NCBI GenBank assembly: GCA_008632985.1
Contig: QPGO01000039.1
Location: 186,001-250,000 of the forward strand
Length of the DNA: 64,000 nucleotides
Direction: 5' to 3'
Origin: Psammoneis japonica
Taxonomy: Eukaryota
The notes beneath the pieces are model-generated. The model had not been told where the DNA came from, made no database searches, and was given only the letters and a program-made list of their open reading frames with translations. Made by a program: the position numbers and the translations under genes. Of the stretch, positions 34,744 through 62,211 are shown piece by piece. The stretch's first letter is position 1, and each line of letters begins with the position of its first letter.

Positions 34744-34981
34744 AATGTCGATGAGAATCGTTTCTTATTCCATAGTTTTAGGAGTGTTGTTTTAGTCGAA
34801 ACCCTTACATGTCACACTACGCTTTGATTTTTTTAAAGCTTGTTGATTAGACTAGCTGGTGTTTTGTCAGCAGATCGGTCCTTACCTCTAATGTCCTCCA
34901 GAGAGACTCACACAGACAGCGTCTTGATATGGAGTATTGTGAGTTTGAAGAGAGGAAATTTAGACGGCCAGGGAAGGCAAA

Positions 34982-36603: not shown

Positions 36604-37818
36604 ATGGCGTGTTCTCTTTTTCTTTTTTGCGCAATCCTGGTATTCCCTGACTCAACAACTGCAGCAACAACTGTTTCCTTTATAATGCAACAAACTACAA
36701 GACCTCTCCCGCTGCTGCATGCAACAAGTCTGCCCATTTTGAAAAACGACAACATTGCACAACAACCGCCTGCTCCTCTGACCAATCAAGTTCCACTCAA
36801 AAAGATTCAAGATGAAGAGCTCTGTGATGACAGTCTGTCTCCCTTTCGAGTGGATGTGATTGCTCATCATGGAGCCTCTGGTGTGAGTCCCGATCATGCG
36901 TTGGCGAGTTGGCGAGAAGCCTTTTTGGCGGGCGCCGACTGGATTGAAGTTGATGTGCAGTGCACCAAGGATGGAGTGCTTGTCATTAAGTTGGACCATC
37001 GGCTTTTTTTTTGCACATCTTTTCCGGGTTTTTCTGCATTTTTGACGGGTCATGACAGAAAACAACACGACAAAAGCATGAGCAACAATGATGATGTTCG
37101 CGACGAGCGGTGAGTTGCAAAGTGTCACCTCACGAGGGATGCTCACTGGTTTTGTTGTCGTGATGTGGTGCAGATTGATTTGTGTGCTTTCATCCCTCGT
37201 GCTGCTAGGCCAATTTTGAGAGACAGCGCAATGGCCATCATCGTTGTGCTTCGATCGCGGTGCCTGATGTTGTCGTTTTCAAGGGCGATCGAACAGCTCT
37301 TGTGTTTAAAATTGACAAACACAAATTAACATGTTTAAACACAGTGCCAATTTTAGGACAAACGCTGAAAAAATGGGTCGGCGGTCCCCCTCAATCACAA
37401 TGTCAACTTGGGAGAAACAACCGACATTGCCGACTGGGCATGGGCAGCACCGCTTCGTTGTCAAACCAAGGCCGTGCCGTGTCAGGACGGAGATCCATCC
37501 ACCGTGGAGGGGTGGGTTGTCAAGGATTTGTTGTCAGAGGAAGTCAAGCAATTGCGTGTCAAGGAGAAGAGCAAGTGTTGACCACAAGATTGCAATTTAA
37601 TGTGCGATGTTCCAACACTGGCCAAAACTGCCAACTTTGTGCAAGACATGGTGGACAGTGAACAACGATTGCATCGCACAAACAGTGTGACCAAGTCCAA
37701 GTGGCTTCAAGAATGCAATCAGCACATGTGTCAAAGTGCAGATGTTGCCGACCAAGTCCTTGAGTTGGGCTGCACATTGAAACAAAGTGCCCAGCTTGGT
37801 GTTGATCTCTTGGTTTGC
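36604..37818 (+). pseudogene. GDPD copy A (3'-truncated, interrupted)
   Basis: Colinear with 45607-46410; HRG changed to HHG; 401-bp insertion at 36990; TpA lost from ~36900 onward. Confidence 0.9.
36990..37390. mobile_element. Non-autonomous DNA element inserted at TTAA
   Basis: Empty site GTCATTAATCAC in copy B; flanks TTAA / TCAA; imperfect TIR GTTGGACCATCGGC / GTCGGCGGTCCCCC. Confidence 0.75.
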
Positions 37819-39413
37819 AATCATTTGGTGCACAATGCATTGACAGGCAGAAGCTGCTGGCTTTGCAGAAGGCTTGGTGGACAGCAAATGATCGCATCTC
37901 ACAAGTGGCACAGCCAAGCCCCAGCAGCTTCAAGAAAAGTTGACCATGCTGTCATCATTTTGCTGTGCCACCCATGCCAATGCTGGCCAGAGCAGACCTG
38001 CCATGTTCCACAGCACCCAAAAGCATGGCAGGGGGATCCCCAGCGGGTGCAGTCCAGTGCATCATCGCAAAGCAGCACATGTCACAATGCAGCTGCAAGT
38101 TAAAACAGCAGCCAGCTGGGTGCTTGCCACACAGCAAGAGAAGTCGCTGTGCTTCAAAAAATGGACAAAGCCAGCTGTGCCACACCCAGAGCTGCAAAAA
38201 AGTCATGGAAAGCCAGCCAAGTGTGCAGCTGTCTCTGAAAAAAACACAACACATGAACAGGGAGAGAACAACCTTCCTGGAACAGAAGATGGAAGACAAG
38301 GGTTGGCAAAAAATGCCATCATGCACAGAGAGTTGCACTGTGGGAAGCTGTGCTGAAGCTGGGGCAATGAAGTGTCAAAATGGTCAGTCAATGAAGCCTT
38401 GAAATGTTCAGTCAATGAAGCCTTGAAATGTTCAGTTGAAAGCTTTTCAAGGTCTTGCATCAGAGTGCCAGATGATGTCCTTTTGAAGTTTGAAAGTTTG
38501 CTGCAAGATGGAGACTCAGAACTAGAAAGCTGGCAAGAACAATGTGCAAAGTGACAAAACATGAACAACCATGGCCATCTCAACAACATGCCAAAATGCA
38601 CAGAGTTGCACTTGAAATTTGTGCTGCTGAAGACTGGTGCAAAAATGAGCTGAAATTGTGCAGAGTTTGACATAGAAAATGCGCTGCAGTCTGGGTTGAA
38701 AATGCAAAGGGAGTTGGCATCACAGTGGGGCCAAAACTCCCAAACACTGGCACAGCAAAGTGTCCACCCCAAAACACTTGGTCTTTTGCAAGTCAAAGAG
38801 TGAGCATGAAAATTGATGTGAGAGAAGATGACATGTGCCTCAAGCAGGTTTCTCTGGTTGTTTGATTTAACTGAGTGTCCATCAGCACAAGCACCACCAT
38901 CAGAGGGCAAAATGCACTGCCCCTGTTGATGGCATTGTCAGCTTCCCTCTACTTGGCCAACCTGCCACCATTGGATGAGGCTGTCAGCTGAGACAGAAGA
39001 AACAAACAGCCAATGGAGAGGATGTGCAGCTTGCAGGAGCCACACACAACCAAATGTGCCTTGTCTTTGCCTTTCATTGCATTGATTGTGTGTCAGTGCT
39101 GAGTCTGCTCTTCCACACTGACAGTGCACAGTGGTGAGACAGGGCCACAATTTCCAAACAGAAAGAAGAATCTTCTTGGGCTGATCCATCTTGGAGATGA
39201 GTTCTCCTGGGCCTGGGTAGCAAGATGTCACCAGGACCAAGAGCTCCGGCTCAAAAAGCCATGCGCTGTCAACGGAAACTGCCACCAACTTGTGACGACA
39301 CAAATGCTACGCTGTCCAAGGCGTTGAGCTCTACCCTCTTGATTACTGAAGGTGCAGGATAAGGTCAAGTGGCACCAATCGACTCCTTATAATTTAGTGC
39401 GTGGCGTGTGGTA

Positions 39414-41201: not shown

Positions 41202-41598
41202 GACGGGTTCCAGTCCCAGGCGGGACTCTGTGTGACATTGGGCCCGCAGAATTCTACGTGCGAGCTCCGCAGCAAATTTGCACTGCAATGAAAATGTGAA
41301 TGATCGCCAACAGAAAAAGAGGCAATTTTACGAACGCATCTCCTCCTTCACACTTGGAGCACATCGTTGACAGTTTGCCCGGGTGCATTCTTCAGACATC
41401 AAAGAACACACCCAGCGCATTTTCATTCTCACAAATGTTGAAAATGGAAAGCCTTTGGCTTCGCAAAACAGGGAGCATGAGACAATTTCGCAGAATTTCA
41501 CACGTAGAAATGCATGTGCGCGACATGCGACGCGATCCAAAAAACTGTTGATGTCACAGTGCAGCAGTGCGAGGTCCCACCTGGAGCTGGAACGCGTC
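41202..41598 (+). mobile_element. MITE family A copy 3
   Basis: TIR as copy 1; TSD TTTG/TTTG. Confidence 0.9.
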
Positions 41599-41871
41599 TT
41601 TGCTTGGCTTGTTGCCGCCTCATGGCAACGTCATCGTCGTCATGGTGTCGTCACTCTCGTCATGTGTTTTTGTTCTGTTTCGTTTCAACTTCGTCGATGC
41701 AGTTGGTTCAATGCCCTGGTGAAATGATCAACCTTCATCAGTTAGAAGATGCATGAAATCAGAGATGCAACATGTTCATGTGTGAATGAAGTGGGGGCAT
41801 GCATAAAAGCATGATGCAGTTTGGGAAGCACTGCATGGGTGTGACCCTGTGACGTCCGCAAAAAGGCTTTG

Positions 41872-42303
41872 TGCAGCATGCATGCAGACAAAAGGTTGTT
41901 TTTGTCACGCCCTTTGTGACATTTAAACTGCAACACGTCGCCGTGATGCATTAACTCTTGTCAGCAGCTGTGTGTTGCACTCCTCCCCATGTGTCACGCG
42001 CAGAACTCACGTGTGCTGACACTGCACGTTTTTGGCGGAACAGTGTGGGTGCGTGCAAAGGAACACACAGAACTGCACAGAGTTTTACGCGTTCGACAGT
42101 GATCAACGTTGCTGCAGACAACTCCCACTCAGGGTTTCGAACCCCTGGCCTCCTGCCCAGTGGTTACGATGTGCCACTCCGCTGTGAATTCACAATGCAG
42201 CATGCATGCAGACAAAAGGTCATTTTTGTCATGCCCTTTGTGACATTTAAACTGTGACACGTCGCCGTGATACATTGACTCTTGTCAGCAGCTGTGCATT
42301 GCA
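41872..42303 (-). mobile_element. TRIM copy 2
   Basis: Colinear with 3204-3649; TG...CA ends; TSD TTTG/TTTG. Confidence 0.88.
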
Positions 42304-42639
42304 TTTGTGACATCAGGCATGCACACAGGTGTGGTCCAGTTTGGACAGGGTCTTGTCACACATCATGCCATGTGCAGTCTGCTCTAGAGAGAGTTGTGGC
42401 CTGGAACTGAGAACTCGCTCGCCAAATGATTTTTTTCAAGATGATTTACAGGGGTCACCGATCTCCAGCTGGCCAGTGTTTGTTGCTCCATTTGTTGTCC
42501 CGTGCGATTGCTTGTACGTTGGACAACAACACCACTGCATTTGCGTCAAAACATGAAAACAACACTGCGTTTGTGTTCATCAGCAACAACACAATGCTCG
42601 CGGAAATGATGCGAAAAACAACAAACACTGGGGGGGCCA

Positions 42640-43920
42640 ATGCCCTGTCCATCGCAACGATGCGACGTGCCAAATGGCTCTGTTGGCAAACGGTTCATTG
42701 CAATGTTGGCAGAACTGCTGGATGGAGTCACAAGGTGGAAGTGGAGCTCGGAAAGATTCACAGCACATCAGACGGTTGTTTTGCAGCGGGACCGCAACGC
42801 AAAAGGAGGAGCCAAAGACATCAGAACTTTGCTCAACATGTGCATGGACGATTGGGATGCGGGCAAGCACAAAATGCTGGTCCAATCAATGGAACGGCTG
42901 CTTGAAGCAAACCCAAACCCCGCCAGCTCTCCAGGAAACACCAACTCCAGCATGTCCAAGGATGGCGATCGCGGCGACCTTCTCGGCATGCAATTTTGGG
43001 ATGGAAGGACAGACATGGTGACGGACATTCACACTCCCGACACGGACGCGAAGTCACACCCATCCAAAACACCAGAAGAAGTTCTGGCAATGCACGAATG
43101 TGAGAAAAAGTGCAAGTGCCTCAAGCCCTGTCTTGAGCAATGCCGTCATTTCACGCCCTTTGCAGTGTCATGCGACAGACTTTTGACGTGTTCCAGTCCC
43201 AGGTGACACACAAAACGACAATCAATTTTGAACGTAAATTGTGCATCTTTCAGTGCATGAAGCATTTTCACACAAAACACTCAAGCGGATTGGCTTTTGC
43301 AGGCATCTAGAGTGTGCACATTTAAATGGTTTTTTGTGGGGCATTAAAGTCCTCGTGTGGGATGTGCATCATTGACTTCCTCAGCAGACTCAATGCTGTT
43401 TGTGCGTCAGTTCATTCTACACTGAGATTTCTTTGCAGGCAGAAAACCTGCCAAGCAGCATCCATTTGGGCAACATCCAAATGACGGCAACAATTTTGCG
43501 GAAAATCATCCGTTGTGTTGCGATTTGTTTGTCGCAATGAAAAACACAGACAGCACAATAAAAATGACATTGCAACACTCACACGAGTCTTGCCAGTGTT
43601 GCAAAACATTCGAATTTGCACAAATCTATGCTTTTGGTGGTGAAAAACCATTCACAAGTCAGAGACCGCGCAAAAATTGCTTAAATGTCGTTTTTGTGCA
43701 CGATTTGGGTCATGTGCGGCTGGAACACATCTTTTTGGCAAAGAAGCTGAGGCAATGCTCCGCAAGACAGCCTGGAGACCATCAGACAAATGGCAAAAGC
43801 CATGCTCTGAAGCATGCGGCCATGTCAATGCAAGAATGAGCACTGCCATGGTCCGGGCGACCCACCGTTGCCTCAGGGGATCCCGCATTCCCGCCTCTCA
43901 GATCAGCTCCAGATGATCCC
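42640..43920 (+). mobile_element. Internally deleted CRE-like non-LTR element (RLE endonuclease region)
   Basis: VPNGSVGKRF..., DRGDLL..FW, DTDAKS, FTPFAVSCD..GKEA, VRATHRCLRGSR motifs; RT region absent. Confidence 0.7.
43185..43731. mobile_element. MITE family B (same TIR type, different interior)
   Basis: GACGTGTTCCAG...CTGGAACACATC; TSD TTTT/TTTT; splits the CD.L-GKEA motif of the non-LTR remnant. Confidence 0.75.
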
Positions 43921-44570
43921 AGTGGGGGTCTGTCTTTGTGCAGACACCAAAGGACCCCATCCAACTGACCTGCACCCTTCCAGACAGTGTGCCAACTGAC
44001 TGTCCAACGACAACATTGATGGCGTGCCTGGAAGTTGACAAAAACCTGCCACCACACCAAACATGGCGCCACAATTAATTCAAACATCATGCGCACAGCC
44101 TGCAATCTTGTGCGCAACAACTGCCCCTTGCGGCACTCATGCGACTGCATTGAGGGCCCCACCCACTTTTTCTCTCCAGATGTGCGCGCTGCGTGATTTT
44201 GATCAGATCAGCCACAGGCTCAGATGCGCTGCTGGACAGGACAATGCATGCTCCAACTGCTTGGAAAGCACGGATCTGAAATGCTTGTCATTCATGAACA
44301 CAACCAACAGGACCTGCAGTTTCGCATGATGAATTTAACCAACGGACACTGGTCAGGTGGAAATCTGCAGAGAAGCCTCCATTGGAAATTTTGTCAAGAG
44401 CGCACATGATGTGCGCCACCGAATTTGTTTCAGAAGTCAGAACGTTTTTGTGTTGCTGTTGCTGCTTGTGGTTCTTGTTGTTGCAACCATGCGATCGCTC
44501 TGCACTGGCTCAATGCAGTGGAGCTGCAATCGGGAAATGTGGGCAGCCCAATGAGGATGCATGAATTGTC

Positions 44571-44960
44571 GACACGTTCCAGGTCTGGGTGGGGCCTCGT
44601 GCTGCTGAACTGTGACATCGACAGTTTTTTGAGTCTCGTCGCATGTCGCGCACGCAGATTTCTACGTGATTTTTTCGACATTTTGTGTCATTTTACGGTG
44701 CACTCATTGAGCAATCCGTCCAACAACTTTTGACATTTTTTGTTACAGCGCGATTCTACAATGTCTCAAGAATCGCGCAGGGCAGGCGAAGTTGCAAAAA
44801 CATCGAGTGGCAAGAGGCACAATTGCACCACAAACTTGGGCGTTTGTTTGATGTTGAAGATGAATGTGTCCATTCATTAAATTCTCGTACTACGGAGCTC
44901 GCACGTAGAATTCTACGGGCCCAATGTCACACGGAGTCCCACCTGGGGCTGGAACGCGTC
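44571..44960 (-). mobile_element. MITE family A copy 4
   Basis: Closely similar to 12575-12966; TSD TGTC/TGTC. Confidence 0.9.
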
Positions 44961-45606
44961 TGTCAGAACAGGCACGCACTCCATTTTGTGCCACTGTCTG
45001 CGAACGACGTGACGACAGGTCGGTCATCGAAGGCTCCGCACAAAAAGAGCGTAGAATCCCATGGAGAGATTGTGATTTCCTGGCACGTCAGAAGAAAAAA
45101 ATCGGCCATGACAACACGCCGTCGACAATTTCATCACAACGCAAGTGGGGCCGTCGAGCGCCCACACCTGAAACGTGTGCTGCAATGCCAACTCAATGAG
45201 ATTCCCATGGTCGGCGCTCGACGGCCCCACTTGCATTGCAGCGCATTTCGACCATCATTGTCGTCGTGCTTCGCCGTGGTGAAACACCCAAAATCGGTGC
45301 ACAAAACAGAAAGGAACCCGGCAGAAATCGCCCAAAACCCGGAAGTGTGTCCGTGAAAATCACGTCATTTTGCTAAATAAAAAAGTTTCTTAATTATTGT
45401 AAATGTTGATTTTCTACTGTCCTGCCTCTCTAGTAGTAGCAGTGTACTGTATCTGAGCCTGTGGATCAGCGATGCCTGTATTTTTTGGATATCCGTACTT
45501 GCATGCAGTAAAATTAATGTATGATAGACTGCACGTCAGCAATGTCGCCCACCAATTGCCCCGTTTCGACAACTTATTTTGCGCGACGACGACTAGACTC
45601 TCGACC

Positions 45607-46941
45607 ATGGCGTGTTCTCTTTTTCTTCTTTGCGCAATCCTGGTAATCCCTGACTCAACAACTGCAGCAACAACTGTTTCCTTTATACTACAACAAACTA
45701 CAAGACCTCTCCCGCTGCTGCATGCAAAAAGTCCGCCCATTTTGAAATACGACAACATTGCACAACAACCGCCTGCTCCTCTGACGAATCAAGTTCCACT
45801 TCAAAAGATTCAAGACGAAGAACTCTGTGACGACAGCCTCTCTCCCGTTCGAGTGGATGTGATTGCTCATCGTGGTGCGTCTGGTGTCAGTCCCGATCAT
45901 ACGCTGGCGAGTTATCGAGAAGCCTTTTTGGCCGGCGCCGATTGGATTGAAATTGACGTGCAGTGTACCAAGGACGGAGTGCTTGTCATTAATCACAATG
46001 TCGACTTGGGAGAAACAACCGACGTTGCCGATTGGGCGTGGGCAGCACCGCTTCGTCGTCGAACCAAGGCCGTGCCGTGTCGGGACGGAGATCCGTCCAC
46101 CGTGGAGGGGTGGGTTGTCAAGGACTTGTTGCTCGAGGAAGTCAAACAATTGCGTGTCAAGGAAAAGAGCGAGTGTCGACCACAAGATTACAACTTGATG
46201 TATGACATTCCGACATTAGCCGAGACGGCTAATTTTGTGCAAGACATGGTGGACAGTGAACGATCGCATCTCGCAAACAGTGTGACCAAGTCCAAGTGGC
46301 TTCAAGAACGAAATCGCTATGTATTAAAGTACGGACGGTGCCGACCGAATCCACGAGTTGGGCTGTACATTGAAACAAAGCGTCCAGCGTGGTATCGATC
46401 TCTTGGTTTGCCACTCGAAGAGAAATTAGCAGACGTTATTGACAATAGCAAGTTTGAAGGACCAGTAATTGTACAAAGCTTTGAAGAAGACAGCCTCCGT
46501 CGTATGCAAGAGCTAAAACCAGACTGGAGAACAGTCAAGCTCATGACAAAGCATGATGCTGACAGTATCATGAGCAACAATGGAGATTTAGACAAGTTTA
46601 TGCAAGGCCTGATATCCTGGGGTTGTGATGGGATTGGACCCGACAAGTCCTCTATCATTCCAGAAGCAACGTTTCCTCCGAATAGCTCTCCCTTGATTGA
46701 GGCGGCACATGCACACGGTCTCTTTGTTCACCCCTATACCTTCAAGAGCGACACGTTGCATCTACACAGAGTCTATGGTGGCAATGCAGGCCAAGAATTT
46801 GCGCAATTTTTCAAACTTGGGATTGATGGCGCCTTTGCGGATTTTCCCGACCACGCGGTGTTTGCAAGAGAGCTGTACAATCGTTTGCAGATTCGAGGAG
46901 ACGGTTTTTTGCTGTTTTCCGACGTGAAGGGACAGTTTTAG
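45607..46941 (+). CDS. Glycerophosphodiester phosphodiesterase (GDPD), secreted type; intact copy B
   Basis: Signal peptide, VIAHRGASG, GADWIEIDVQCTKDGVLVINH, LYIETK, VQSF, VHPYT, GIDGAFADFPD. Confidence 0.93.
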   Translation: MACSLFLLCAILVIPDSTTAATTVSFILQQTTRPLPLLHAKSPPILKYDNIAQQPPAPLTNQVPLQKIQDEELCDDSLSPVRVDVIAHRGASGVSPDHTLASYREAFLAGADWIEIDVQCTKDGVLVINHNVDLGETTDVADWAWAAPLRRRTKAVPCRDGDPSTVEGWVVKDLLLEEVKQLRVKEKSECRPQDYNLMYDIPTLAETANFVQDMVDSERSHLANSVTKSKWLQERNRYVLKYGRCRPNPRVGLYIETKRPAWYRSLGLPLEEKLADVIDNSKFEGPVIVQSFEEDSLRRMQELKPDWRTVKLMTKHDADSIMSNNGDLDKFMQGLISWGCDGIGPDKSSIIPEATFPPNSSPLIEAAHAHGLFVHPYTFKSDTLHLHRVYGGNAGQEFAQFFKLGIDGAFADFPDHAVFARELYNRLQIRGDGFLLFSDVKGQF

Positions 46942-47879
46942 CTCATCATGAGAAGCATATGGCATAACCGGGCTTGAGATTCAAAGCGTGCCGCCGGATG
47001 CACCCTCAAAACGATATGGCCACGTCCTCGATTCAAAGAAAATATTGCTTGTAGCTCTACAGAAGCACGGAGAAGTTCAGGGGATGTAATGAGCACTTCG
47101 ATGCCAAAGCAAATCAGGGACGAGTTTGTACGACCCTTTATTCTTTTTTTACACAGGTGGCGACCTTGTCTAGTAGGCAAAGTACTTGTGCCGTAATTTT
47201 GTAGAAGTTTGCTACTGCTTTGTAAAATAGTCCGATATTATCCAATCAGTTCGATAGGGATGTGGCAGAGAGAAAGGAGAGATTTAAGCGCGTGACTTCA
47301 ATGCCGACCGAGGGCTCTGGGCTGTTGTTGCGACGCTGGAAAGATGGGATATTATTTGTCGACATCTCTTAAAGGCAGGTTCTGTCTTCTACCCCTTTCT
47401 TATGGGGCATGAATACATAACTAGCTAGCAGTTGTCTTTTGTAAGAAGTTCTAGAGTTTCAGCTAGTAGTGCGTGGTGTCTTCCCATGATGAAAGCTATT
47501 CCCCCCCCCTCCCCCCGACTCTTCCAGAGGAGGGCCAACAAATCCTGCGAGAGTGGGTAGGGTCAAGTCATCCTCATTAGCCCTACCGGTACAAGACTCT
47601 GTCAAAACTCATGAGTCACAGTATATCTGCGCACCTTTCAACTTCTAAACGGATCTCTAGATTATCAATCTTCTAAAATGGATGGACTCTTTCTTTAATT
47701 TTGGCTTGAATCATGTAAATCATCACAGCAGTCGCAAATCATACCTCAAAACCGACAGTACGAGCTATTTCGAGCTCCGGGTGTGCCTTTCTATCTGGAG
47801 CCAGTCTTACGTTTTTGTGCGTCCTTTTTGGAGGGCCCATCAGGAACCTCGGTGGGCCCATCAGGAATGCCAACCAATG

Positions 47880-48935
47880 CCTGGTTACAGACGTACTCCG
47901 GTGCATGGCAAGACCCCTGACTGGGAGGATCGAACGGTGAGCAGCCTTTTTTTGACAGGAGGCAATCGACACTGTCAAGCTTGAGACACTTGCGCCACTT
48001 GACATTGCTGCTGTAGAGAAGACAGAATTCGCATCCTGCGCTACCTCGAATGGTGCAACTGTCCAATCCCAATGGGCAATGAGAAGTGCCCACATCAGCA
48101 TGAGTGGAAATGCCGCAGCCGCCTCCTTCATTGTCAGCTCCTGTGCTGCTTTTGACATCAAGAATGAAATCCGTAAACTTGGCATGGTGCCCCCCCCAAA
48201 ACAAGAAAGTAAGTGCCACCGGCTGGGTGGGGGAACCCATCCTTTCTGGCAGAAAATGACAGCATGCTCTTCAAACCATCGCCGCCATCATCGTCCATCG
48301 CGATCAAATTGCCGAGCCAATCGCACAAACCAATCACAGTGTCGTCGATGTCAGATGGATTTGTGTCGATGAAGGGAGATTTTTCACGGCCTCTTTCGAT
48401 GTCAGATGGATTTGTGTCGATGCAGAGAGAGGTTTCACGGCCTGTCAATTCAAACTTGAACAAAAGGACCTCATTGGGAAGCAGATTTCCACAGTGACGA
48501 AGTCCGGTGCTGGTCACGAAGCCAAAATGATGCTCGATTGGCGGCAGCAGCCCAGTGTCGGCATGAACCGTAATTTCGTAACAGCCGCGTTTACCGGCTC
48601 CTTTGACCTCAAAGTTGCAGTCATAAAACTTGGTTCCATGCGCTCCCACCGCAAGGTGGCAAGTGCCAGCCGGAGGGACTGGTCCATCGGAGCCCGTGCA
48701 GGAATCATCATCTCCATCATAAATGTCTTCACCGGAGCCAACACCAAACGACAGTGTGCTCCACACACCGATGCCGCCATCGTCATCCACCACAAGCAAA
48801 TCACCATCTGAATTGTGCAGAGCAATCACAGTGTCTTCCACATTGTCGGCACCATCCAAGATGACAAAGTGGTGTTCTTCCATTGCAATGTCAAGATGCG
48901 TTTCCCTGCCTGTCAAACAAAACCCAAACCAATGC
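47880..48935 (-). pseudogene. PPC/DVUA0089-like repeat protein, copy 1 (5' part replaced by copia fragment)
   Basis: Paralog of 63005-64000; frameshift, 51-bp in-frame duplication at ~48345-48445; TpA loss increases toward 48935. Confidence 0.8.
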
Positions 48936-50520
48936 TGGTGAGCTCAAAAGCCTTGGAGTGAGTCATGGTGGGGTTTTGGCAGTCAGACTTTCCAAATGTG
49001 TGGTGGTTGAGCTCCTGGAGAACTTCATGGATGGGGATGACATCATGCACAGCCTGAGAAAGTGCAGCACATTCCACTTCCATGGTTGACAATGCTGCAA
49101 GAGTCTGCAGCTTGGACACCCAGACAAGTGGACAGCTGGCACAATGGACAAGGTGTCCAGTCCTGGACTTGACTGAAACTGAGTCTTGTCTGTCCTCAAC
49201 ACCAAACAACCCTGGAAGTCAAAGTCAACATGACAATCAACTCTGTGATCTTTCGCAGGCTCAAGAATGAGGCCTTTGGCAGCTGTGGCCTTGAGGTGCC
49301 AGAGCATCTCTGCTTCACTGCAGCAGCATGGGACACTTGGGGTGGGTCTGCATCAACATTCCAACAAAAGAGTGACAGTCGCAAGGTTCTTCAAAGGGTG
49401 CATTCTTCCGTGTCAGCGCCAATGGGTGCAGGCAGTGCTGGGGTGGAGACGCCCCATTGCAATCCTGCATCTGTGCAGTGCGCGAGAACTTGTCAACCAG
49501 ACCAGGTTGGGTGAGCAGAAATTGACCCTTGGAGAGCTTTTTGATCTTGACACCAAGAAAAGTGCCAACCTCCCCTTCACCCCCAAGTTCAAATGTGTGG
49601 CGATGCTTGTCATTGGAGACTCCTGACTTGTGAATCTCCTCTTCCAGAGCTTCAGCTGATGAACCAACAAATGCCGGCATGTCTTGTTGATGTGCGTGAC
49701 ACACATCATGCCTTTCTTGAAATGCAAACATGGGTTGCAAGTCAAAGGAACCCATCAGCACTTGATTGAGCTGGCTCTTGACTTCTCATGGAAGCATTTG
49801 GGAGACTGCTTGAGGCCGCACAGTTCTTTTGAAAGCTCAAGGACCACATTGAGTGCCAACTTTGGTGCAAAACCCTTTGGCAGTGATGCGCCGGCTTCTT
49901 TGGGGATGACGGCTTGGCAGAAGACTGCAGTGCAGTCTGCCTGATGTGTGGCCCATCCTTCTTTCAGTGCAGCAGTGAGCACAAGTCAAATGCTGGACCA
50001 TTGCACCACCGGCATGCAGATCTCAAAACAATCCACTCCCCCTTGCTGCAAACAACCACAGATGCAGCATTGGGCCTTGCACTTCAGAGGTGTTCCATCT
50101 GGCAGCCTCTTGAGTTTAAAAGCCCATGTCCTGGGAAGCCCATTTGTCTTCAGCATGCATTTGTCTGCTTTCCAGGCCCAATGATGGATGAGTGCATTGA
50201 CTGCAATCTTCATTGCCTTGATCCATTCTTTGGCATCCGGACTCTTCAGAGCATTGTGTGATGAAAGCATGTCAGGGTTCTTGCTCTTCTTGCTTGCTGC
50301 ATGGGCTCTGGGATTTGCCAATGTTGCGTGTGCCTTCATCCAATCAGTCTCAAGCCTCGTGCCCAATTGGAACCCATTCTTCCTTGATGGAGCTGAGACA
50401 CACTTCATCCACAAACTTGGTGGAGTGGAGCTGGCCCTTGGTTGACCGTGAAGACCATCGCAGCCCTGACACTCCCTCTGAATTTGCTGTGGGAGGTGCT
50501 TCAATTGGAGCATCAGAGCG
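48936..50520 (-). mobile_element. Copia RT/RNase H fragment, same family as 2657-9059, no LTRs
   Basis: Reverse-complement homology to ~6930-8545 (KKSKNPDM, GLKQSPKCFHEK, SVKSRTG, LSTMEVE). Confidence 0.88.
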
Positions 50521-51982
50521 TGCAACACAGTGATTGACTGTGACCCTTTTTCACAGTGATTGTCACTCCTGTTTTAGACACAATTTGCAAGGTTTCAAAC
50601 CTCATTGGTTGTGCATGCCTCAAGACAATGGACTCAACTTGTGAAACACAGGCTGACCTCACCCAAAAATCATCAATCCTCATCAACTCCAAATCATCCA
50701 GAGACATCTCCACATCCTCGTTCTTGAGGTTCGCCATCAGAGAGGGCAACGAGAACCATGGAAAAAAGCTTGAGAAATGGGCCAACACATGCCTCTTGAT
50801 TCATTCCCAGCTTGGTTGACATGAGCATGTCTGGACAGGCTGCAAACAAAATGTCCTTGGACAGCTCATCTTGAAAATCCCCACATGCTCGTGCGCACCT
50901 GGTGGTGTTCCGCTTTTTCCACTTGAGGTTGCTTTCTTGGAGGAGGTGGCTGACTGTGCAGGAGATTTTGGGTGTGTTCTCTCTGGCACCTTCTTGAAAA
51001 TGCCATCGTTGACAGCATTTTTTTCTGTCAAGATTGGCAACAACAGCAGATGTTGCACTGCTCTTGGGATGTCACTTTCCTTCGGCCCAGTGTCGCCAGG
51101 CACTGACACAAAATGACCAAATGGTTCTTGCTGATTTCCTTTGCATCATCTCTCATCCACTCTTGAGTTGTTCAAAAGGGTGAAAGAATCTCACCCCACA
51201 CTGGATCATCAGCAATTTCTCCTCCTCGCTGAGCTCAATGAAATGGCTCAACCACATTGATGCCATTTTTCAAAGGTTTTGCAGACAAAGCAACAGCGGA
51301 TGAGACACAGCCATTTGGCAAAGTGTCCAATCTGCACAATGAGGGAAACTTGGGCAGCCTCTTGTCATTGTCCAGGTGTCTGTCCATCCACCTTCTCCAG
51401 CGTGCCGCTGTTGCACGGTGACTCCTCCAAGAGCACGGCCGCCCACAAGCTTGTCCTCTTCTCGCGCTTGGCCTGACATCTTGGCATGACCAGGCCAGAG
51501 ATTGGCACCATCCTGCTGGATGCCCCCTCCTCCCCAACAAGAAGGCCAGCTTGTTGATTTAAAGAAAATGTTGCTTGTGGCTCGGCAGAAGCCTGGGGGC
51601 AAGTTCGGGGGATTTGACAAGCACTTTGATGCCAAAGCAAATGAGGGGTGAGTTTGTGTGGCTCTTTTTTTTTTTACACAAATGGCAACCTTTACCAGGC
51701 AAAGCACTTGTGCCATGTTTTGCAGAAGTTCACTGCTCTCTGGTCAATTTGGACATCGAGGATGCTTGCGCTTGTCAGTTGCCACCTGGTGTGGCCAGCT
51801 GATGCTTTGCAAAACAGTCCGATCTCATTTTCAGTCAGATTCAAGCACACAATTTCAATGCAGACCAAGGACTCTGGGCTGTTGTTACAACACTGGAAAG
51901 ATGGGATGTTGTTTGATGACATCTCTTCAAGGCAGGTTCTGTCTTCTGCCACTTTTTTCTGGGGCATGAATGCACAACTGGC

Positions 51983-52405: not shown

Positions 52406-52939
52406 TGGCAGTTGGTTTTTTGCAAGAAGTTCTAGAGTTTCAGCCAGTGCGTGGTGTCTTCCCATGATGAAAATTAGCTCTAGTGCCCCCCCCACCCCCC
52501 ACCCCCGACTCTTTAAGAAGAGAGCCAACAAAATCCTGCGAGGGCAGGTGGGGTCTCTAGAAGTCATCATCAGTTCTGCAAAACTCTGCGTCAAAACTCA
52601 TGAGTTGGTGCACCATTCATCTTCTAAACGGATCTCTAGATTGTCAATCTTCCCAGTGGATCTGTGCAACATCAATCTTCTAAAATGGATGGACTCTTTC
52701 TCTCTGATGTTGGCTTGAATCATGTGAATCATCACAGCGGTCGCAAATTCCGCACCACAGCTCAAAATCGACCGTGCGAGCTGTTTCGAGCTCCGGGTGT
52801 TGCTGCATCTGGCCAGTCTTTTTCTTTTGTGCGTCCTCGGTGGGCCTTTCAGTCTTTTTTTGTTGTGCGTCCTCGGTGGGCCTTTCAGTCTTTTTTTGTT
52901 TTTGGATCCTTGGTGGGCCCATCAGGACTGTCAACCAAT

Positions 52940-54000
52940 GCCTGGTCACAGACGTGCGCCGGTGCAAAGCAAGACCCCCTGCTGGGAGGATCGTACCGTG
53001 GGTCGCAGCCTCTTTTCGGCAGGAAGCAATCGATGCTGTCAAGCTTGAGGCACTTGCGCCGCTTGACATTGCTGCTGCAGAGAAGACAGAAATTGCATCC
53101 TTTTGACACCTCCACTGGTGCACTCATCCCAATCTCCGCAAGTGGAGTCAGCATAGATGGAAATAGTGCACATGCCGCCATGACCACGTCCCGTGCTTTT
53201 GACATTAAGAATGTCACCCGTAAATTTGGTGTGGTGCCCCCCCCCAAAACAAGATGGCAAAAGCCACCAACGGGGACCTCACCGTCCTTTTTGCCAGGGC
53301 CAAACGACAGCAAGCTCTGTCCATCTCCAAAGTCACATTCATCTGACAAGCCATCATCGTCCATCGCAACTAACTCACAACTGTCATTGTCATGCAACCC
53401 AATCACAGTGTCGTCGATGTCAGATCCACAGGTGTCGATGCGGAGATGGGTTTCACTGCTGAACATTTCAAACATGAAAAAAACGACCTCATTGGGATTC
53501 AAACATCCCGAGTAATGCGATCCAAAGCTGCGCACAACGCCAAAGTCATGTTCGATTGGCGGCCGCAGGTCAGTGTCAGCACAGATTGCAACTCGGCATC
53601 TGCCGCCACGACCGGTTGTTTTCACCTCAAAGTCATCCTTTGCAGATTTCGATGTTCCAAAAAAACCAATCTCCCAACGCAAGGCAGTAAGTGCCAGACG
53701 GAGGGACCGGTCCATCGGACCCCGCGTGGGATTCCCCTCTTTCTTCACAATCACAAATGTCTTCACCGGAGCCAACGCCAAACGACAGCGTGCTGAACAA
53801 ACCGGCACGACCATCCTCGTCCTGCGCAAGCAAATGACCATCTGAATCACACAGAGCAACAAAAGTGTCGATTGGGATAAATTCATCGCCAGCCTCGGTT
53901 GCAATGTCAAGATGCGTTTCCTCGCCTGTCAAACAAAACCCAAACCAATGCACCTCATTTGGCCCCAGAGAATTCCCATGCCCAAACCCGCATCCAATGT
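52940..54000 (-). pseudogene. PPC/DVUA0089-like repeat protein, copy 2
   Basis: Colinear with 63005-64000; Tyr mostly replaced by Cys/His; frameshifts. Confidence 0.8.
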
Positions 54001-57000
54001 TAAAAAAAAATGTCTTCAAGCTTCGGCTGTGCCTGAACTGCTGCCATTCCTGCAATGGAAGCGAGAAAAGCAAGAGATGTGCCAAGCTTCATGGTGCTTG
54101 TCCTGCGTTGTAAAAAGGCAAATCGAGAAGATGTTGGTCAATGATCTTGTTGGTCCGTTGCACAGTTGTGCACAAAAGTTGGAACACTTCTTGCAGCAGA
54201 GAGCCACAAGTGCTTTCAAACAGCACAAGATGAAGCAAAAGGGTGGGTCTTTCAATCACAGATGAGGTCTTGGACTGCCGCTCTCAAGACGACAGTGAAG
54301 TCCTGATGGTGCACAGAGTGTGTCATGGAACAATGCATGCTCAATTTATGAGGAGAGCGCGGGGGGGAGGGGTTTCCCAGGTGACAGGGCATTGTGGACA
54401 GATGCTCCAAATGATGGTCAACTCGAAGTGTGTTGGAGAGAGAGGAGTGGAAAGAAGAAAGAAGACAATGAAGCTCCACGTTGCCAGCAACACACCTCCA
54501 CTGCATGTGTCCAATGCATGGAGTGGCCACATGAAACGAGTTTGCGCTCACCTTTATCGGAATTGTTGCTGTTGTCGTTGTTGTTGCAATTGCAGTGTTG
54601 TTGCTCAAGCAGTGTTTTGTGTTTTATGATCACGTGTTTTTTCTTTGCCGTCCAAACTCCAAACTCACACAAACTGGAGTGGTCTTGCTTTTGAACATTT
54701 GAAACAATCTCGACACGAAAATCTCTGCATTAAAAAACGCGAAAGCGTGTCAACTTGGGTGTCAACCCGACCCGAACCCTGAACACATCCATCGTGTCAA
54801 CACCTCCTCATGGTGCTTGTTGTTGTTGTTGTGACAAGTGAGCGCCGTTCACTTCACCACCATCAGCGAATTCCGGGTTGCTGATCGTAGGTTCTGCGTG
54901 ACTTTTTCCATTGGCATTGTCTGTGCCGTCATCACCAGGAACATGAAAGAAGGTTTGTTCCAACGCAAGATTCCCAATTCTTCTGCTGTTTCCGTGGTGC
55001 ACTTCTTGTGCATGCAGGAATCAAGTTGCGCGCAGACTTTGGCGGCCACAGAAGGAGGAAAGGTGGTGCTGGGTGGGCGGGCACATGATTGATGGAAAAA
55101 GGTGATGGAACAATGTGGGCAAGGAGGGGGGCAGCAGAGCAAGGTGACAGGCTTGTTGCTGTGGTGTGGCAAATGTTGAGTGATGGCACTCTGGTTGTCT
55201 GTTGACAAAATCAGAAAGAACAAGGGCCCAACAGGCAAGTGCCAGCTGCAGTGCCATCACAAGTTGCACTTTGTTGAAAGGCAAAGTCAAGCCACAAAGA
55301 CTCTTCTTGTGCTCAAAGCAATGTGAAATGAAAAGCAAAGAGGGGGGCCTCGCTGGGGCGGAAGAGAAGTCCCGGCTCGGTCCACTCGATGGGACGAGCT
55401 GGTTGTTTGTTTTGCAACGGGCTCAATTTTGACATCAAAGCAGTTGAGAGCAAACTCCAGATGCAGTTTTGACATGAAATGACCAGCTTCTCAAGGATTT
55501 TTCTTCACCCAGTTTGTGCCATGGTGCGAGTGCTGTGTGTGGACAGCAGCTGCAGCTCGGGGGGGGGGGGGGGGGGCAGCGCCAGGTGGCAACCCAGATG
55601 CATCAGCTTGCTCTTCAAAAGAGCTGCAGCCACAACCCAGCAAACCCAGATGGCAGTTGCCAGAAGCAGATCTCTTGCTTGAAGTGAAGCTGCTGCTCTG
55701 AGTTGTTTTTGCACATGAAGAAAAACAACAAGAAAGCTCATTTCCAGCTGCGCCAGCGGGGCTGCTGGGTTTGCAAGTGAGAGCAGGGGTCGTGCTGCAA
55801 GCTGGGGCAAGCAAAGTCACTGGAGACAACTCAAACTGGGGTCATGTGCATGATCTTGAAAAAAGGGAACAGGAGCGCTGGATCAAAAGAAGAGAAAAAA
55901 AGCACTGCACAGGCAAGGGCACCCTGCCGAGGCAGCAAAAAGCACGCCAACTGGCTTTGCTCCCCAGGTGCACCAGCTGCTCCCCTGCAAAAGAGTTTTG
56001 TCATTGCTGTGTTTCTGTCTTGTGCTTGTTGTCAAAGTTTTGCATGCACTGGACAAGCTGATGATTTGAACAAGGTGCTGAAGCAACACACAAACATGGA
56101 GTGTGTGCGCATGGAAGTGGGCCGCGTTTTGTGAAGGAGTTTCTGGCAATGCAGAGCAGCAGAGAACCTGCTGTGCAATTTAAAACCACACACAGATGAG
56201 TCATGGTGAGGCACTGAAAAGTGTGGCAGAGCAAACTGGCGAGAAGGGAACAAACTGCAAAGCATGGTCATGGTGTGCAAGCACAAAACTCTTTTTCTGT
56301 GTTCTGCATTTTTGATGCACTGGCCGAAGGACTGCTTCAATCTTGACATCTCTCAGGCTTTGCTTCTGACAAAGTGATGAGGATTCCAATGTTTGTGCCA
56401 TTGGCTGCAGGCATCCCGTCGCCTGTCATTGTTTTGTCTTTCGCTGGTGCGAACACAGTGGCACAACACATGCACATGCAGATGGGTGTTGTGTCATTTT
56501 AAGGGGCTCAAGTGTTGTTTTGTTGATCTCATGTGATGTTTTGTCAGCGGGCATTGCATTTGTGTGTTTTGGCCAACCAGAAAACTCTTCCTGAGATTTG
56601 CGACATTTTTGTCAAAGGAAAAGAACAAATGAAATGCTCTTTCTTTTGTCGCAACGACAAATTGCAATTGGCCATGTCAAAACAAAGGCGATTTGTTGAT
56701 GTCCCATGTGTCATGACATGATGTGATCACATTTGTTCTGTGACTGGGTCACAATCATCACAACACTGTCGCACAGCCCTTCAAAAACACGATTGTCGAA
56801 CTTGGCGTCACACAATCATGCTTCTACATTCACGAACAATTTTTACAACTCCTCACATGCGTTCTCATCAAAGAACACTTTTTCAGGAAGTGATGTCATT
56901 TGTGCTGTTTTTTTAACAACTTCAATGCCTTCTATCTCGAAAACGAGTCAGAATCCCCCCACTTTTCTCATTTCCAAAACATCTCTTTTACTCAATTGCA

Positions 57001-58154: not shown

Positions 58155-58270
58155 TTTGAGCAATTGCTCAAACTTGCAGAAGTTTGAGCAATCTCACAAG
58201 TTTGAGCAACTGCTCAAAGTTGCCAAGTTTGAGCAAATGTCAATGCAAGCAAAAGCAATTGCTCAAACTG
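58155..58270. repeat. Cluster of TTTGAGCAA motifs in both orientations
   Basis: Four TTTGAGCAA and three TGCTCAAA copies within ~115 bp. Confidence 0.7.
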
Positions 58271-59832
58271 TTGCTGGCAAAATCCAAGACTGAAACACCA
58301 CTCAGCCATGATCGTCAAACATTCTTGCTTGAGAAGGCATCCACTCATGTCCACTGCAAACACGTGCTTGTGCACATTTGAGCATTTTTCCCACATGGCA
58401 CTGTGGCAGCATGCAGCTTTGCAAGCTCTTCTGCAATCTCTTTTTCATTCAAGACTGAGTGACGAGCACTTCATGAAGTGTTGTGCATGCTCCAAATGCC
58501 CCATGTGTTGATGCCAGCAGTGCTTGTCTTGTTGCAAGCACATCCTCACAAGCAGTGCAAGAGCCACACAAGGAGAGCCACCTTCTCTCTCTCCTTGTCA
58601 GCATGCTCTGCTGCTGCAAATCTTTAGAGAACTGCAAAAGCAGCGTGCAGCTGGCTGCTCAATGAGTTGGTTTGCAGTTTTTTCTCCTTTTTTGTCAACC
58701 AGCAAAATGCCATTCACACAAACAAGTGCCACAACTCTCTTTTGTTCTTTGCCTTGGTGATCTGCCCAATCATGCCTCAACCTCTCAAGCCTGCAGCCAA
58801 GTGTCCCATTTCATGGCTTTGGTGCATCCAAAAGGTGCTCTGAGAGAGTTTGGCAAAATGTTGGCTTTTTTGGCATGCACTTTGAGCCCGCCATCTTCTC
58901 AGAGTGTCTTGAAACCTTTGCCCTCACTTTCTCAAGATGGCACTCAAATGATTGTCATCAGGTCATCTGCAAGCATGCCTGGTGTAAAAGACAAACCTCA
59001 GAACAGGTGTGTCTCACACTTTTTCTGGAAAAAAATTGGAGTGCAAAGCTTCCAGGATTCCATGTTGAGTCAGACACAGCAGCAACCCAGGTTCACATCA
59101 AACAAGGTTGGCCGCTGAAGACCAACACATTCTAGATCCACACAGAGTCTGTGTGGTTGCAGTGCAAGAAAAAAGCTCGGGCAACTCTTTGAGCACCTTT
59201 TTTTGCACCAATTTTTTCCCTGAAAACTGCGTGCAATGATTTGCAGATTTGTGGAGAGGGTTTTTGTTGTTTTGGCTCAAAAGAGCCTTTTGCCAGCACC
59301 AGGCTTGAGATTGACAGCATCACTCCATTGGGTGCATGGTGCACCCACAAAATGATGAGGCTGCTTTCTTGATGATTCAAAGAAAATGTTGCTTGTGGCT
59401 CTGCCGAAGCACGGAGAAGCTCAGGGAGATTGACGATCACACTTTGACGCCAAAGCCAACCAGGGACGAATTTGAACCACCCGTTTCTTTTTTGCACAAG
59501 TTGTGACCTTGTGCCACTTGAACTTGGGCATCAAGGATGCCCGCACTTTCCCCTGCTCCAATGACTTGCAACAGCTGCTCTCGACACGGGAGCTTCACAA
59601 ACACCACCGCCCAGGCACGAGAGTCTGGCCTCAGAAGGCAAAGCCTGCAGAAAACATCTTGGGACACGCAAATTGGTGCCATGGCAGCAAAATGAGAAGA
59701 ATCTGGAACATCAATTTTGTGAATGAATCACACAGCAGTTGCCACTCGAGGTGGCGTGCGTTTTGCTTGTTGCATCAAATCTCTGCAACAATCGCCCCCT
59801 CATTTGAATTGAATTGTTCAATCTTCATTGCC

Positions 59833-62211
59833 GTCAGTCTATCTCCCATTCAAGCAGCTGTGGTTGCTCATCGTGGGTGCCTCTGGCACAACACACGTTG
59901 GTTCAAAGCCCCGATTCCCGATCGTGCGTTGGCGAATTGGCAAGTTGTTGAGAAGCCTTTTTGGCCGGTGCCCATTGGATTGAAATTGATGTGCAGTGCA
60001 CCAAGGACGGAGTGCTTGTCATTGATCACAATGCCGACTTGGGAGAAACGACCGACATTGCCGTTTGGGCATGGGCGGCACCGCTTTGTTGTCGAACCAA
60101 GGCCATGCCATGTCGGGACGAAGATCCATCCACCGTGGAGAGGTGGGTTGTCAAGGACTTGTTGCTCGAGGAAGCAAAGCAATTGCATGTCAAGGAGAAG
60201 AGCGAGTGTCGACCACAAGATTGCAATTCAATGCACGACATTCCAACACCAGCGGAAACAGCTGACTTTGTACAAGACATGGTGGACAGTGAATGATTGC
60301 ATCTCACAAACAGTGTGACCAAGTCCAAGTGGCTTCAAGAACGAAATCGGTGTGTGTCAAAGTGCGGACGTTGCCGACCGAATCCCCGAGTTGGACTGTG
60401 CATTGAAACAAAATGTCCAGCGTGGTGTTGATCTCTTGGTTTGCCACTCAAAGAGAAACTGGCAGACATTGTTGACAACAGCAAGATTGAAGGACCAGCA
60501 ATTGCACAGAGCTTTGAAGAAGACAGCCTCCGGCAGATGCAAGAGCTAAAGCCAGACTGGAAGACGGCAAGCTCATGACAAAGCATGATGCTGACAGTGC
60601 CACAAATTGCCAAACACTTGTCACTTTTCATGCACAAAGCACCTTCGATCGCCCTGAAGAGGAAAATTTCCTTTCGTTGGCTCGCTTGCACCAGGCCACG
60701 TAGAAAATTACAGTGCAGAGTCTTGCTGCTTTCCAACTCCTCCCTCCGACCACCAACAACAACACGCGGTGAAGCACGAGGATGTGTCCGACAATGGCGG
60801 TGCCCATTCTCATTGATTCTGCCAATTTTCACAACTCTCCTGTGTTTCAGTGCGCTCTCAATGGCGACAAAAGAGAGCTTTGTTGCTTGCATTGTTTCCG
60901 CTGGTGCTTTCACTCACATTTGTTCTCTGTCTGCACTGTTTTGACATCCTAGCTGGCGTGTCGTATGATGCTTGCTTTTGTTCAGCAGCATTGAGGCTCA
61001 ATTGATCTTTCATCAACCGAAGCTGGTGAATGTCGTTCGAATGTTGAATGTTTGGTGTTGCAGTGTGGACGTTCGAGGTGATGAGAGGGGGCCACAAATG
61101 GCTCGTGCAAGAGAGAAATGGAGCACTCAACTCGTCTCTCTCATGAGTGGGATCTTGAACCGGGTGATGCAGTCCATTGAGCGAAAGTGTGTGTGACAGA
61201 CATGCTAGAAGGAAGAGTTGCATGTCACTGATGGAGACATTGAATGCATTGCATGCAGTGCAAACATCAAAAACACTCTCTCTGCATCGGCAGAGCAAGT
61301 GACTCGCTGTCGGCTCTCAATGACACAGCGCGAAGAAGACAGCAGAAATTTCAATTTAGCTTTACAGGCAATGGATCTAGGAACAAAGGCAGCATTGTTG
61401 AATGATTAAATGGAATGCTTGTCATTGACAGGCGTTTGAGTTTCGGCGCAGTTGTGTTCACCACGCCAAACATTGTCGTCTTGTTTTGCAGTGCTGTTCA
61501 GTGTCCTGTATCCTGCAACTCCTTGCTGTCAACATTGTGCTAAAGGTGTCAATAATTCCTGTGAACAAATGCTGTCATTTCCATTCTTTTATTAGAGAGG
61601 GAAAGTTGTCGCAAACTGCCGACGGTGTTCCCCGCATTGTCGCGTGTTGTTTTGCGAGAAGCGCGGGTGAAACGTCGGAGGGAGTTTCTGTACATAGAAT
61701 TCTGCGTGGCCTGTACAAACGAACAACGAATGGAAAATTTCCTCTTCAGAGCGATCGAACGCGCTCTGCGTGCGAAGAGTGACAAGTGTTTAGCAATGCT
61801 GCTAGAGGTAGTTTCCCTAACCAATAATAAATTTGTAGCATCATGAGTGACAATGGAGATTTGGACAAGTTTATGCAAGGCCTGACATCCTGGGGTTGTG
61901 ATGGGATTGGACCCGACAAGTCCTCTGTTGTTCCAAAAGCGACGTTTCCTCCGAACAGCTCTCCCTTGATTGAGGCGGCACATGCTCACGGTCTCTTTGT
62001 TCACCCCTATACCTTCAAGAGCGACACGTTGCATCTACACCGAGTCTATGGTGGCAATACAGGCCAAGAATTTGCGCAATTCTTCAAGCTTGGGATTGGT
62101 GCCTTTGCGGATTTTCCCGACCACGCGGTGTTTGCAAGGGAGCTGTACAATCGTTTGCAGATTCGAGGAGATGGTTTTTTGTTGTTTTCCGACGTGAAGG
62201 GACAGTTTTAG
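59833..62211 (+). pseudogene. GDPD copy C, split by a 1.24-kb DNA element; 5' half hypermutated, 3' half nearly intact
   Basis: 59833-60599 aligns to ~45835-46567 with stops; 61839-62211 aligns to ~46566-46941 with an open frame. Confidence 0.92.
60600..61838. mobile_element. Non-autonomous DNA transposon with ~120-bp imperfect TIRs, inserted at TA (Tc1/mariner-like target)
   Basis: Empty site GACAGTATCATG in copy B; ends C(C/T)ACAAATT / AATTTGTAG; 60607-60720 is the inverted match of 61687-61797; TSD now reads TG (left) and CA (right). Confidence 0.85.

Follow-up and report, generated by a model that had tools for sequence, protein, structure and literature searches.

Separate mutation of the same TpA sites in two dead GDPD gene copies of a diatom

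Results

Opposite outcomes at the same TpA sites in two dead copies

The region studied was a 64-kb window (G000:C37:186001-250000) of the 91-Mb assembly G000 of a eukaryotic diatom; all positions below are those of this window, with its first letter as position 1. The window was found to be a tandem array of host genes, with three copies of a GDPD gene (A, B and C) and three PPC-like copies (P1, P2 and P3). Copies A and C are dead and copy B is intact, and at least 5 TA sites of B were found to have been mutated separately in the two dead copies, with TG in one and CA in the other. Taken with the evidence set out below, these sites are almost certainly the product of a chromosomal, strand-symmetric, context-dependent and position-bounded A:T to G:C process at TpA, which is recurrent and about 5-8 times as fast as CpG decay. 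The GDPD copies and the elements that split them are as follows.

36494-37818, + strand: GDPD copy A overall, dead, split by a miniature inverted-repeat transposable element (MITE)
36494..36989, + strand: 5' part of dead copy A (A1); TA mostly kept at 36641-36696 and lost from 36897 on
36990..37390, + strand: MITE of about 400 bp inserted in A; left target site still TTAA (36986-36989), right one TCAA (37391-37394); 42 matches in G000
37393..37818, + strand: second part of dead copy A (A2); 10/10 TA and 21/35 CG changed to TG or CA; premature stops
45457..46941, + strand: GDPD copy B, intact open frame and reference; 494 amino acids counted from stop to stop, the true start not being mapped; Pfam PF03009 at E 3.8e-36
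59938..60599, + strand: first part of dead GDPD copy C (C1); 18/20 TA and 22/46 CG changed
60600..61838, + strand: terminal inverted repeat (TIR) element inserted in C at the place of B's TA 46566; 88 matches in G000
61839..62483, + strand: 3' part of dead copy C with flank (C2); edge of the mutated domain between 61956 and 62008

An earlier note on this DNA had quoted four sites at which one dead copy carries TG and the other CA, and all four are present in the sequence exactly as stated. Where B reads TA at 46201 and 46217, copy A has TG (37603 and 37619) and copy C has CA (60234 and 60250); at B 46230 and 46366 the outcomes are exchanged, with CA in A (37632 and 37773) and TG in C (60263 and 60399). 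A fifth discordant site, B 46318 (CA in A, TG in C), adjoins a 2-nt insertion in A, and its alignment is less sure. Thirteen TA sites of B are covered in both copies: 5 are TG in both, 2 are CA in both, 5 are discordant and 1, the MITE target site in A, is TA/TG, so that 5 of the 12 doubly changed sites differ in outcome. The TA changes listed above for A2 and C1 divide 6:4 and 11:7 between TG and CA, and those in A1 and C2 come to 5/12 and 6/25 sites. As a control, other A>G or T>C changes were counted at 10/182 positions in A2 and 15/291 in C1, and the reverse change, from TG or CA in B to TA in the copy, at 1/63 and 1/100, respectively.

The TA-poor signature is not an assembly error. Contigs of run X1, a public run that is probably from the same sample and whose library type is not on record, cover the TA-poor stretches 47769-49117, 50851-52058 and 57279-60171 with 0 differing letters. 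This long-piece check reaches only the first 234 bases of C, with copy A outside it. Of 30 bins, run X2 reached 6 and run X3 only 1, which contributed little.

Recurrence in separate copies, as first proposed, is supported by these sites, and the independence of the copies holds in part. Concordance at the doubly changed TA sites (7/12) lies close to the 6.84 expected if hits are independent and follow the flanking-base rule described below, and an inherited share of at least 0.65 is rejected (p 0.024), but a share of 0.5 is not. Nine other differences from B that A and C have in common are all synonymous, which points to a functional common ancestor of the two. Against their separate decay stand the doubly changed CG sites, of which 10/10 are concordant between A and C. 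Four of these, being synonymous, could reflect changes in B; the other 6, which include R309C and a stop at R314, are non-synonymous, and their agreement has p about 0.03 when the concordance found among MITEs (0.555) is taken as the basis. The two copies may thus have decayed in part together or undergone gene conversion.

TA as the ancestral state

Comparison with outgroups supports TA as the ancestral state, which copy B has kept. An ancestral TG or CA, the contrary case considered in the earlier note, was not favoured: of 25 amino acid changes of the TA class, 24 agree with B, 1 is a tie and none agrees with the dead copies in 18 outgroup proteins, these being the best 18 of 935 homologous proteins, with some rows resting on one or two outgroup residues. 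The rows for T149, Y153, N179, L290, Y304 and Y313 rest on 15-18 of 18. Y304 is invariant in 18/18 outgroup proteins and carries TA in 5/5 outgroup DNAs, and has become His in A and Cys in C. GDPD has orthologs of eukaryotic type at 41-63% identity, so the mutated target is not confined to foreign DNA.

The outgroup DNAs were 5 short close contigs (48-59% identity) among the 80 loci of a metagenome GDPD scan, which serve to polarise sites but are of no use for tracing domains. TA is found in them at 46366 (5/5) and 46318 (2/4), and TT at 46201 (3/3) and 46217 (twice, with TG once). Two single sites may be TA gains in B, namely 46230, where three outgroups read CA, TG and CG and are uninformative, and 45966, where CA is found in 2/2 and the gain would be synonymous. 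It had been claimed that opposite outcomes can come neither from a shared mutated ancestor nor from a gain of TA in B. The TG/CA pair alone does not show this, since an ancestral methylated CG also yields TG or CA; the exclusion stands, save at 46230, once outgroups and target-site duplications are used.

Copy B is under purifying selection, because 15 of the 16 listed differences of a second B allele in run X1 (45822-46815) are synonymous. B retains 38 TA, 25 of them with a synonymous exit to TG or CA, and the persistence of these silently changeable sites indicates that B was spared rather than purged. The second allele matches the dead copies at 45904, 46338, 46500, 46503 and 46533, and these therefore arose from an allele nearer to it.

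Transposon target sites as clocks

In both dead copies, comparison of target-site duplications shows mutation acting on chromosomal DNA after insertion. The MITE in copy A belongs to a TTAA-target family and is now bordered by TTAA at one end and TCAA at the opposite end; its TA-rich relatives have TTAA at both ends. In copy C, the left target-site copy of the TIR element, in which C1 terminates, is TG (60598-60599) and the right one is CA (61839-61840), with TA loss waning toward the right end of the element; relatives at 5 loci (L013, L020, L022, L029 and L030) have TA outside both termini. As the two copies in C were identical when made, their opposite outcomes arose on the chromosome after insertion.

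Spectrum, strand and flanking bases

The spectrum of changes was followed in MITEs from 15 + 20 loci, which gave 37 aligned copies. Of these, 32 were used, the reference L042a and four identical-flank duplicates (L044a, L047a, L074a and L074b) being left out; the context fit also left out terminal sites and site 50. Outcomes at 824 site-copies were TG 247, CA 277, TA 263, CG 7 and other 30. The ratio of TG to CA is near 1:1 overall, as predicted (22:17 in GDPD, 36:46 in PPC-like and 247:277 in MITE copies), and the supposed strand-randomness holds among copies (27 copies, chi-square p 0.70) and fails among sites (22 sites, p 2.6e-22), because flanking bases decide which A is mutated.

In the 32 MITE copies, A>G changes were found at 527/1545 (34%) of A after T, 57/2577 (2.2%) after A, 35/1266 (2.8%) after C and 16/1604 (1.0%) after G. 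A:T to G:C transitions are thus almost confined to TpA, at 527/1545 versus 108/5447 after other bases, with a minor non-TA component. A strand-symmetric model gave effects of the base 3' to the mutated A of 7.7 for T, 6.4 for C and 2.3 for G relative to A, and favoured A at -2 about 3-fold, so that the best target is 5'-A-T-[A]-C/T-3' and the worst is TTAA. This rule predicts the survival of TA 4-mers in TA-poor DNA, which is lowest for ATAC (0.004) and ATAT (0.007) and highest for TTAA (0.30) (rho -0.96, 10 classes), in a test weakened by bins that include the MITE loci used for fitting. Independently, the MITE-fitted rule predicts 53 of the 78 host-gene outcomes for which it makes a call (p 0.001), out of 121 changed sites in the host-gene copies in all. 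The minor class has 82/1849 changes at A/C-[A]-C/T versus 10/1994 at A/C-[A]-A/G (39 if changes common to at least 3 copies are counted once) and again favours a 3' pyrimidine, which is what a single enzyme of loosened 5' specificity would do.

CpG cytosines were changed at 248/2336 (10.6%) and other cytosines at 39/3012 (1.3%). The ratio of TA to CG loss rates is 5.4-7.6. Loss of TA can precede loss of CG: L073a has 12/23 TA and 0/34 CG changed with 1 other difference, and L051a has 21/26 TA changed with 1 other difference. The pattern of L040a, 3 TA changes and 0 other differences, suggests recent mutator activity.

Targeting by position

TpA in the window is bimodal, with observed/expected ratios of 0.0-0.2 in long blocks versus 0.4-0.8 in gene-rich parts, and in the TA-poor blocks CpA and TpG are elevated and CpG is reduced. 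Among the 128 bins of 500 bases, 59 have at most 4 TA and 44 have at least 14. Hypermutation is regional and spares other DNA, as seen from these bimodal counts and from edges that fall within copies A and C. The sequence comparisons show edges set by position, not homology. In copy C, 23/25 sites are changed up to 61956 versus 1/14 from 62008 (p 1.7e-7), and in copy A 2/6 before 36750 versus 13/14 after 36897 (Fisher p 0.014), sites with other dinucleotides (1 and 5 in C, 3 in A) having been left out; edges are mapped to about 50-200 bases. Targeting that had been called near-saturating is so inside these bounded domains and not outside them.

MITE copies behave similarly. In copy L049, 8/10 sites are changed in the half toward the TA-poor flank and 0/14 in the other half. 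The changed share falls as the TA density of the flank rises (rho -0.72, 37 copies), and the slope within copies tracks flank asymmetry weakly (rho 0.37, p 0.028, 36 copies). Five MITE copies that differ from one another by 2-5 bases are almost unmutated, which their youth may explain, and they are hence weaker evidence than copy B.

The PPC-like copies

The same three-way comparison was made for the PPC-like copies.

47847..48935, - strand: dead paralog P1; 41 TA sites, of which 21 changed to TG or CA, 7 kept and 13 other; frameshifted
52907..54833, - strand: dead paralog P2; 77 TA sites, of which 57 changed (CA 33, TG 24) and 11 kept; frameshifted
62964..64000, - strand: copy P3, TA-rich reference; homology runs about 840 bases past the window

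This test is less clean than that of GDPD: P1 and P2 agree at 12/17 doubly changed sites and have other differences from P3 in common, and some TA of P3 may be gains in P3. The PPC label of P3 is sub-threshold (PF04151, E 0.083, 14 bits where the cut-off is 25.9).

Other features of the window

Two further element-derived blocks lie next to copy B and copy P1.

41202..44960, no strand assigned: TIR-bounded element, TA-poor, directly left of B
48941..51480 (right limit approximate), - strand: decayed remains of a copia-like retroelement, almost TA-free

The copia-like remains match an RVT_2-bearing element at 6924-8543 at 72-82%, and a metagenome scan with a decayed RVT_2 fragment, aimed at spread to other diatoms, found no relative. 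To the right of the TIR-bounded element, TA loss extends to about 45250 in DNA that has kept plentiful CG; 45001-45250, just upstream of intact B, has 1 TA and 24 CG, that is, TA loss without CG loss. A short, TA-rich copy of the same TIR family lies at 52011-52351 (19 TA in 52001-52250, with TA-free blocks on either side) and is probably a young insertion, usable as an additional clock.

More pieces derived from the 3' end of GDPD and its flank were seen at 46960-47424, 51482-51979, 59294-59512, 62241-62774 and G000:C37:252414-252867, which shows that duplication of the GDPD/PPC-like unit took place four or five times at the least. A distant paralog (69%) lies on contig C390. The stretch 15851-20316 is TA-poor, has weak COPI-associated and EF-hand matches at 15851-16744, and could represent one more engulfed host-gene copy. 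The tandem duplications seen at 34517-35568 and 32021-33164, where the DNA is TA-rich, are without TA erasure by composition, and the pair 34517-34982 / 35092-35568 is 90% alike. At 58144-58268 there is a cluster of short inverted and tandem repeats, with several joints in run X1. TAA and TAG, counted on both strands, occur 1.3 and 0.7 times per 500-base bin in TA-poor DNA versus 10.0 and 10.2 times in TA-rich DNA, and their loss leads to longer spurious open frames; the window has 234 open frames of at least 100 amino acids.

Discussion

A candidate mechanism

Transposon-struck copies of host genes would come to lie in domains of a TpA mutator. These domains are likely to be silenced, CG-methylated chromatin around transposons, an address proposed because CG methylation by DNMT5a and repressive histone marks are found on diatom transposons (PMC9998398). 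Transcription or open chromatin would shield B and P3. Within a domain, the A of TpA would be deaminated to hypoxanthine by an enzyme of the TadA/ADAT type and replicated as if it were G; TG would result from a hit on the top strand and CA from one on the bottom strand, and either outcome destroys the target. Adenine deamination is proposed because the order of 5' bases and the preference for TAC resemble those of TadA-derived editors, of which ABE7.10 ranks TA > CA > AA > GA and favours TAC (PMC8065034). The likely purpose would be permanent inactivation of mobile DNA, with dead host duplicates as collateral. This whole account, a position-targeted DNA mutator that includes an adenine deaminase, is considered somewhat more probable than its competitors together.

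Candidate genes were looked for by profile search. G000 encodes an ADAT2-like protein, a TadA-like protein and two proteins with ADAT1/ADAR domains, and profile matches numbered 9 for PF00383, 5 for PF14437, 4 for PF02137 (two genes), 27 for PF00145 and 2 for PF04493. The glycosylase MPG/AAG (PF02245) gave 0 matches in G000, with the control positive in 4/14. A fusion of a deaminase with a chromatin domain was not seen in the frames scanned, in which exon-split genes were not assembled. The second ADAT1/ADAR-domain gene (L087/L088, G000:C79:344558-345390) had 296 matches among longer proteins and is a possible candidate. For one G000 deaminase gene, the named relatives come from Skeletonema, Thalassiosira, Seminavis, Nitzschia and Fistulifera, which, like a ribosomal protein S9 closest to Chaetoceros (90%) among named matches, marks the DNA as that of a diatom.

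Several observations count against a deaminase acting on adenine, or lessen the weight of the data for it. The deaminases found resemble those that normally serve tRNA and metabolism, and no link joins any of them to the process. The second ADAT1/ADAR-domain gene is a member of a diatom-wide family. G000 also has endonuclease V. TpA is its own reverse complement, so that sequence cannot separate a lesion of A from one of T. Selectivity for TA here exceeds that for other 5' bases about 12- to 30-fold, versus about 3- to 4-fold for ABE7.10, for which the 3' base is reported to matter less (PMC8065034). A processive single-strand deaminase would be expected to coordinate strands, and in the MITE copies the same-strand excess is weak (208/382 within 10 nt versus 192.7 +/- 6.0, p 0.014), with none beyond 10 nt. 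The MITE copies also share some ancestry.

Alternative explanations

The foremost alternative keeps the same targeting and places the lesion on the T of TpA, through oxidised or alkylated thymine pairing with G or direct T-to-C conversion, with R-T-A-T as the best context. Modified thymines miscode, and such a lesion could not be told from one on A in sequence. G000 has at least five intact genes with C5-methyltransferase domains, and DNMT4 enzymes of unknown function, related to the fungal RID, exist in diatoms (PMC9998398). Against it, Tet_JBP (PF12851) had 0 matches in G000, a weak negative as the control was silent, and the order TA > CA/AA > GA with the TAC preference fits a known adenine deaminase. 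A lesion on T is accordingly regarded as a minority possibility, though a serious one. As a separate observation, C5-methyltransferase-domain sequences L095, L096 and L097 (G000:C301, C297) lie in TA-poor DNA, some with stops, and are possibly element-borne or themselves mutated dead copies.

An error-prone polymerase resembling Pol eta might instead make A>G errors in repair patches opened at deaminated methyl-CpG, and TA and CG loss do co-vary among MITE copies (rho 0.77), with the slight same-strand excess within 10 nt pointing the same way. The hotspot of Pol eta is WA, with AA raised as well as TA, but A after A is no more mutable here than after C (57/2577 versus 35/1266). TA is almost all lost with few other changes, and heavy TA loss occurs without CG loss in L073a and in the stretch upstream of B, which makes this source improbable.

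Equally little credence is given to a homology-triggered process like repeat-induced point mutation (RIP), whereby duplicates pair and both partners are mutated. Every mutated sequence examined is a repeat or duplicate, RID-related DNMT4 is reported in diatoms (PMC9998398), and homology might still be what first sets off silencing. However, B retains its 25 TA with synonymous exits despite two cis duplicates at 85-89% identity, hardly any mutation is seen in the five MITE copies that differ by 2-5 bases, mutated domains end in the midst of unbroken homology, and the main target in Bigelowiella natans is single-copy.

The remaining two alternatives are very improbable. In the first there is no TA mutator: the ancestral state of the sites was CG (or TG/CA), deamination of methyl-C turned them to TG in one copy and to CA in the other, and TA is a gain of B. 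CG does decay to TG or CA here, at the rates listed for A2 and C1, and 46230 and 45966 may as single sites be gains in B, but Tyr and Leu are conserved in outgroups, the TA and TTAA target sites have a known ancestral state, and near-identical MITE copies are TA-rich or TA-poor; as a general account it is refuted by the outgroup proteins, MITE copies and target sites. The second, that A-to-I-edited transposon RNA was copied back, or that GC-biased gene conversion or a base-calling artefact is at work, has in its favour the ADAR-domain genes of G000 and the unrecorded library type of run X1, and is countered by equal strands with no bias among 27 copies (p 0.70), by the DNA transposons, target sites and whole-gene-aligned genomic duplicate affected, by CG loss in the same DNA with non-TA A/T barely changed, and by the agreement of X1 contigs with the assembly.

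Significance

Adenine editing of chromosomal DNA by a natural enzyme is not known as an established form of genome defence, and a strict TA-specific DNA adenine deaminase, if true, would be of interest to base editing. The flanking rule offers a fingerprint with which candidate enzymes can be assayed and the mutations of B. natans re-scored, and so makes a common origin testable against convergence. The findings also bear on the fate of diatom gene duplicates and on annotation, given long spurious open frames in dead DNA. More speculatively, and with the odds leaning against it, diatoms and chlorarachniophytes might share an ancient, heterochromatin-guided DNA adenine deaminase pathway, in effect a natural adenine base editor of the genome with an A-T-A-Y preference, which would follow silenced chromatin rather than homology and erase TpA from a large share of the genome, killing transposons, their TA and TTAA targets and silenced host duplicates.

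Comparison with known systems

The nearest known case is TpA to TpG/CpA hypermutation measured in integrated nucleocytoplasmic large DNA virus (NCLDV) and virophage DNA of B. natans (Mettrop et al., bioRxiv 10.64898/2026.01.13.699255). There the process affects both strands, is regional, with TpA-poor clusters enriched for transposon domains, and is ongoing at an about 1000-fold raised rate in some lines only; an ADAT2-like enzyme is the proposed candidate (bioRxiv 10.64898/2026.01.13.699255). The diatom is alike in the change on both strands, in its regional confinement and in the association of TpA-poor stretches with transposons. It differs in belonging to another supergroup branch, in being saturating (often below 0.1, compared with a TpA observed/expected of 0.45 in the NCLDV region), in a wider target range that takes in host-gene duplicates, MITEs and target sites, and in a flanking-base rule and joint CpG decay that are absent from the text seen. 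The rate was measured directly in B. natans and is inferred from copies in the diatom. The word 'diatom' is absent from the available preprint text, and no diatom report of TpA hypermutation was found in open-licence PubMed Central and bioRxiv. To what that text holds, the present locus adds outgroup-polarised host genes, target sites born identical, sharp edges and a quantitative flanking rule.

RIP is a process of ascomycete fungi that acts before meiosis and needs a methyltransferase of the RID/DNMT4 type. It resembles the diatom process in that dinucleotide-specific transitions saturate repeats and dead duplicates. Its chemistry is the opposite, as it makes TpA from CpA or TpG, a change seen here at the 1/63 and 1/100 given above, and it mutates both partners over their homology, whereas B is spared and edges ignore homology. 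Methyl-CpG decay, for which DNMT5a-dependent CG methylation of transposons in Phaeodactylum is described (PMC9998398), acts in the same diatom domains as a second, slower process; it cannot remove TpA, is slower here by a factor of 5-8 and can trail behind altogether. TadA/ADAT2 deaminases and TadA-derived editors are alike in the A-to-G change, in a 5' order of T > C, A > G and in favouring TAC (PMC8065034). They act on tRNA or, when engineered, on single strands opened by Cas9, and the selectivity for TA in the diatom is much stricter than theirs.

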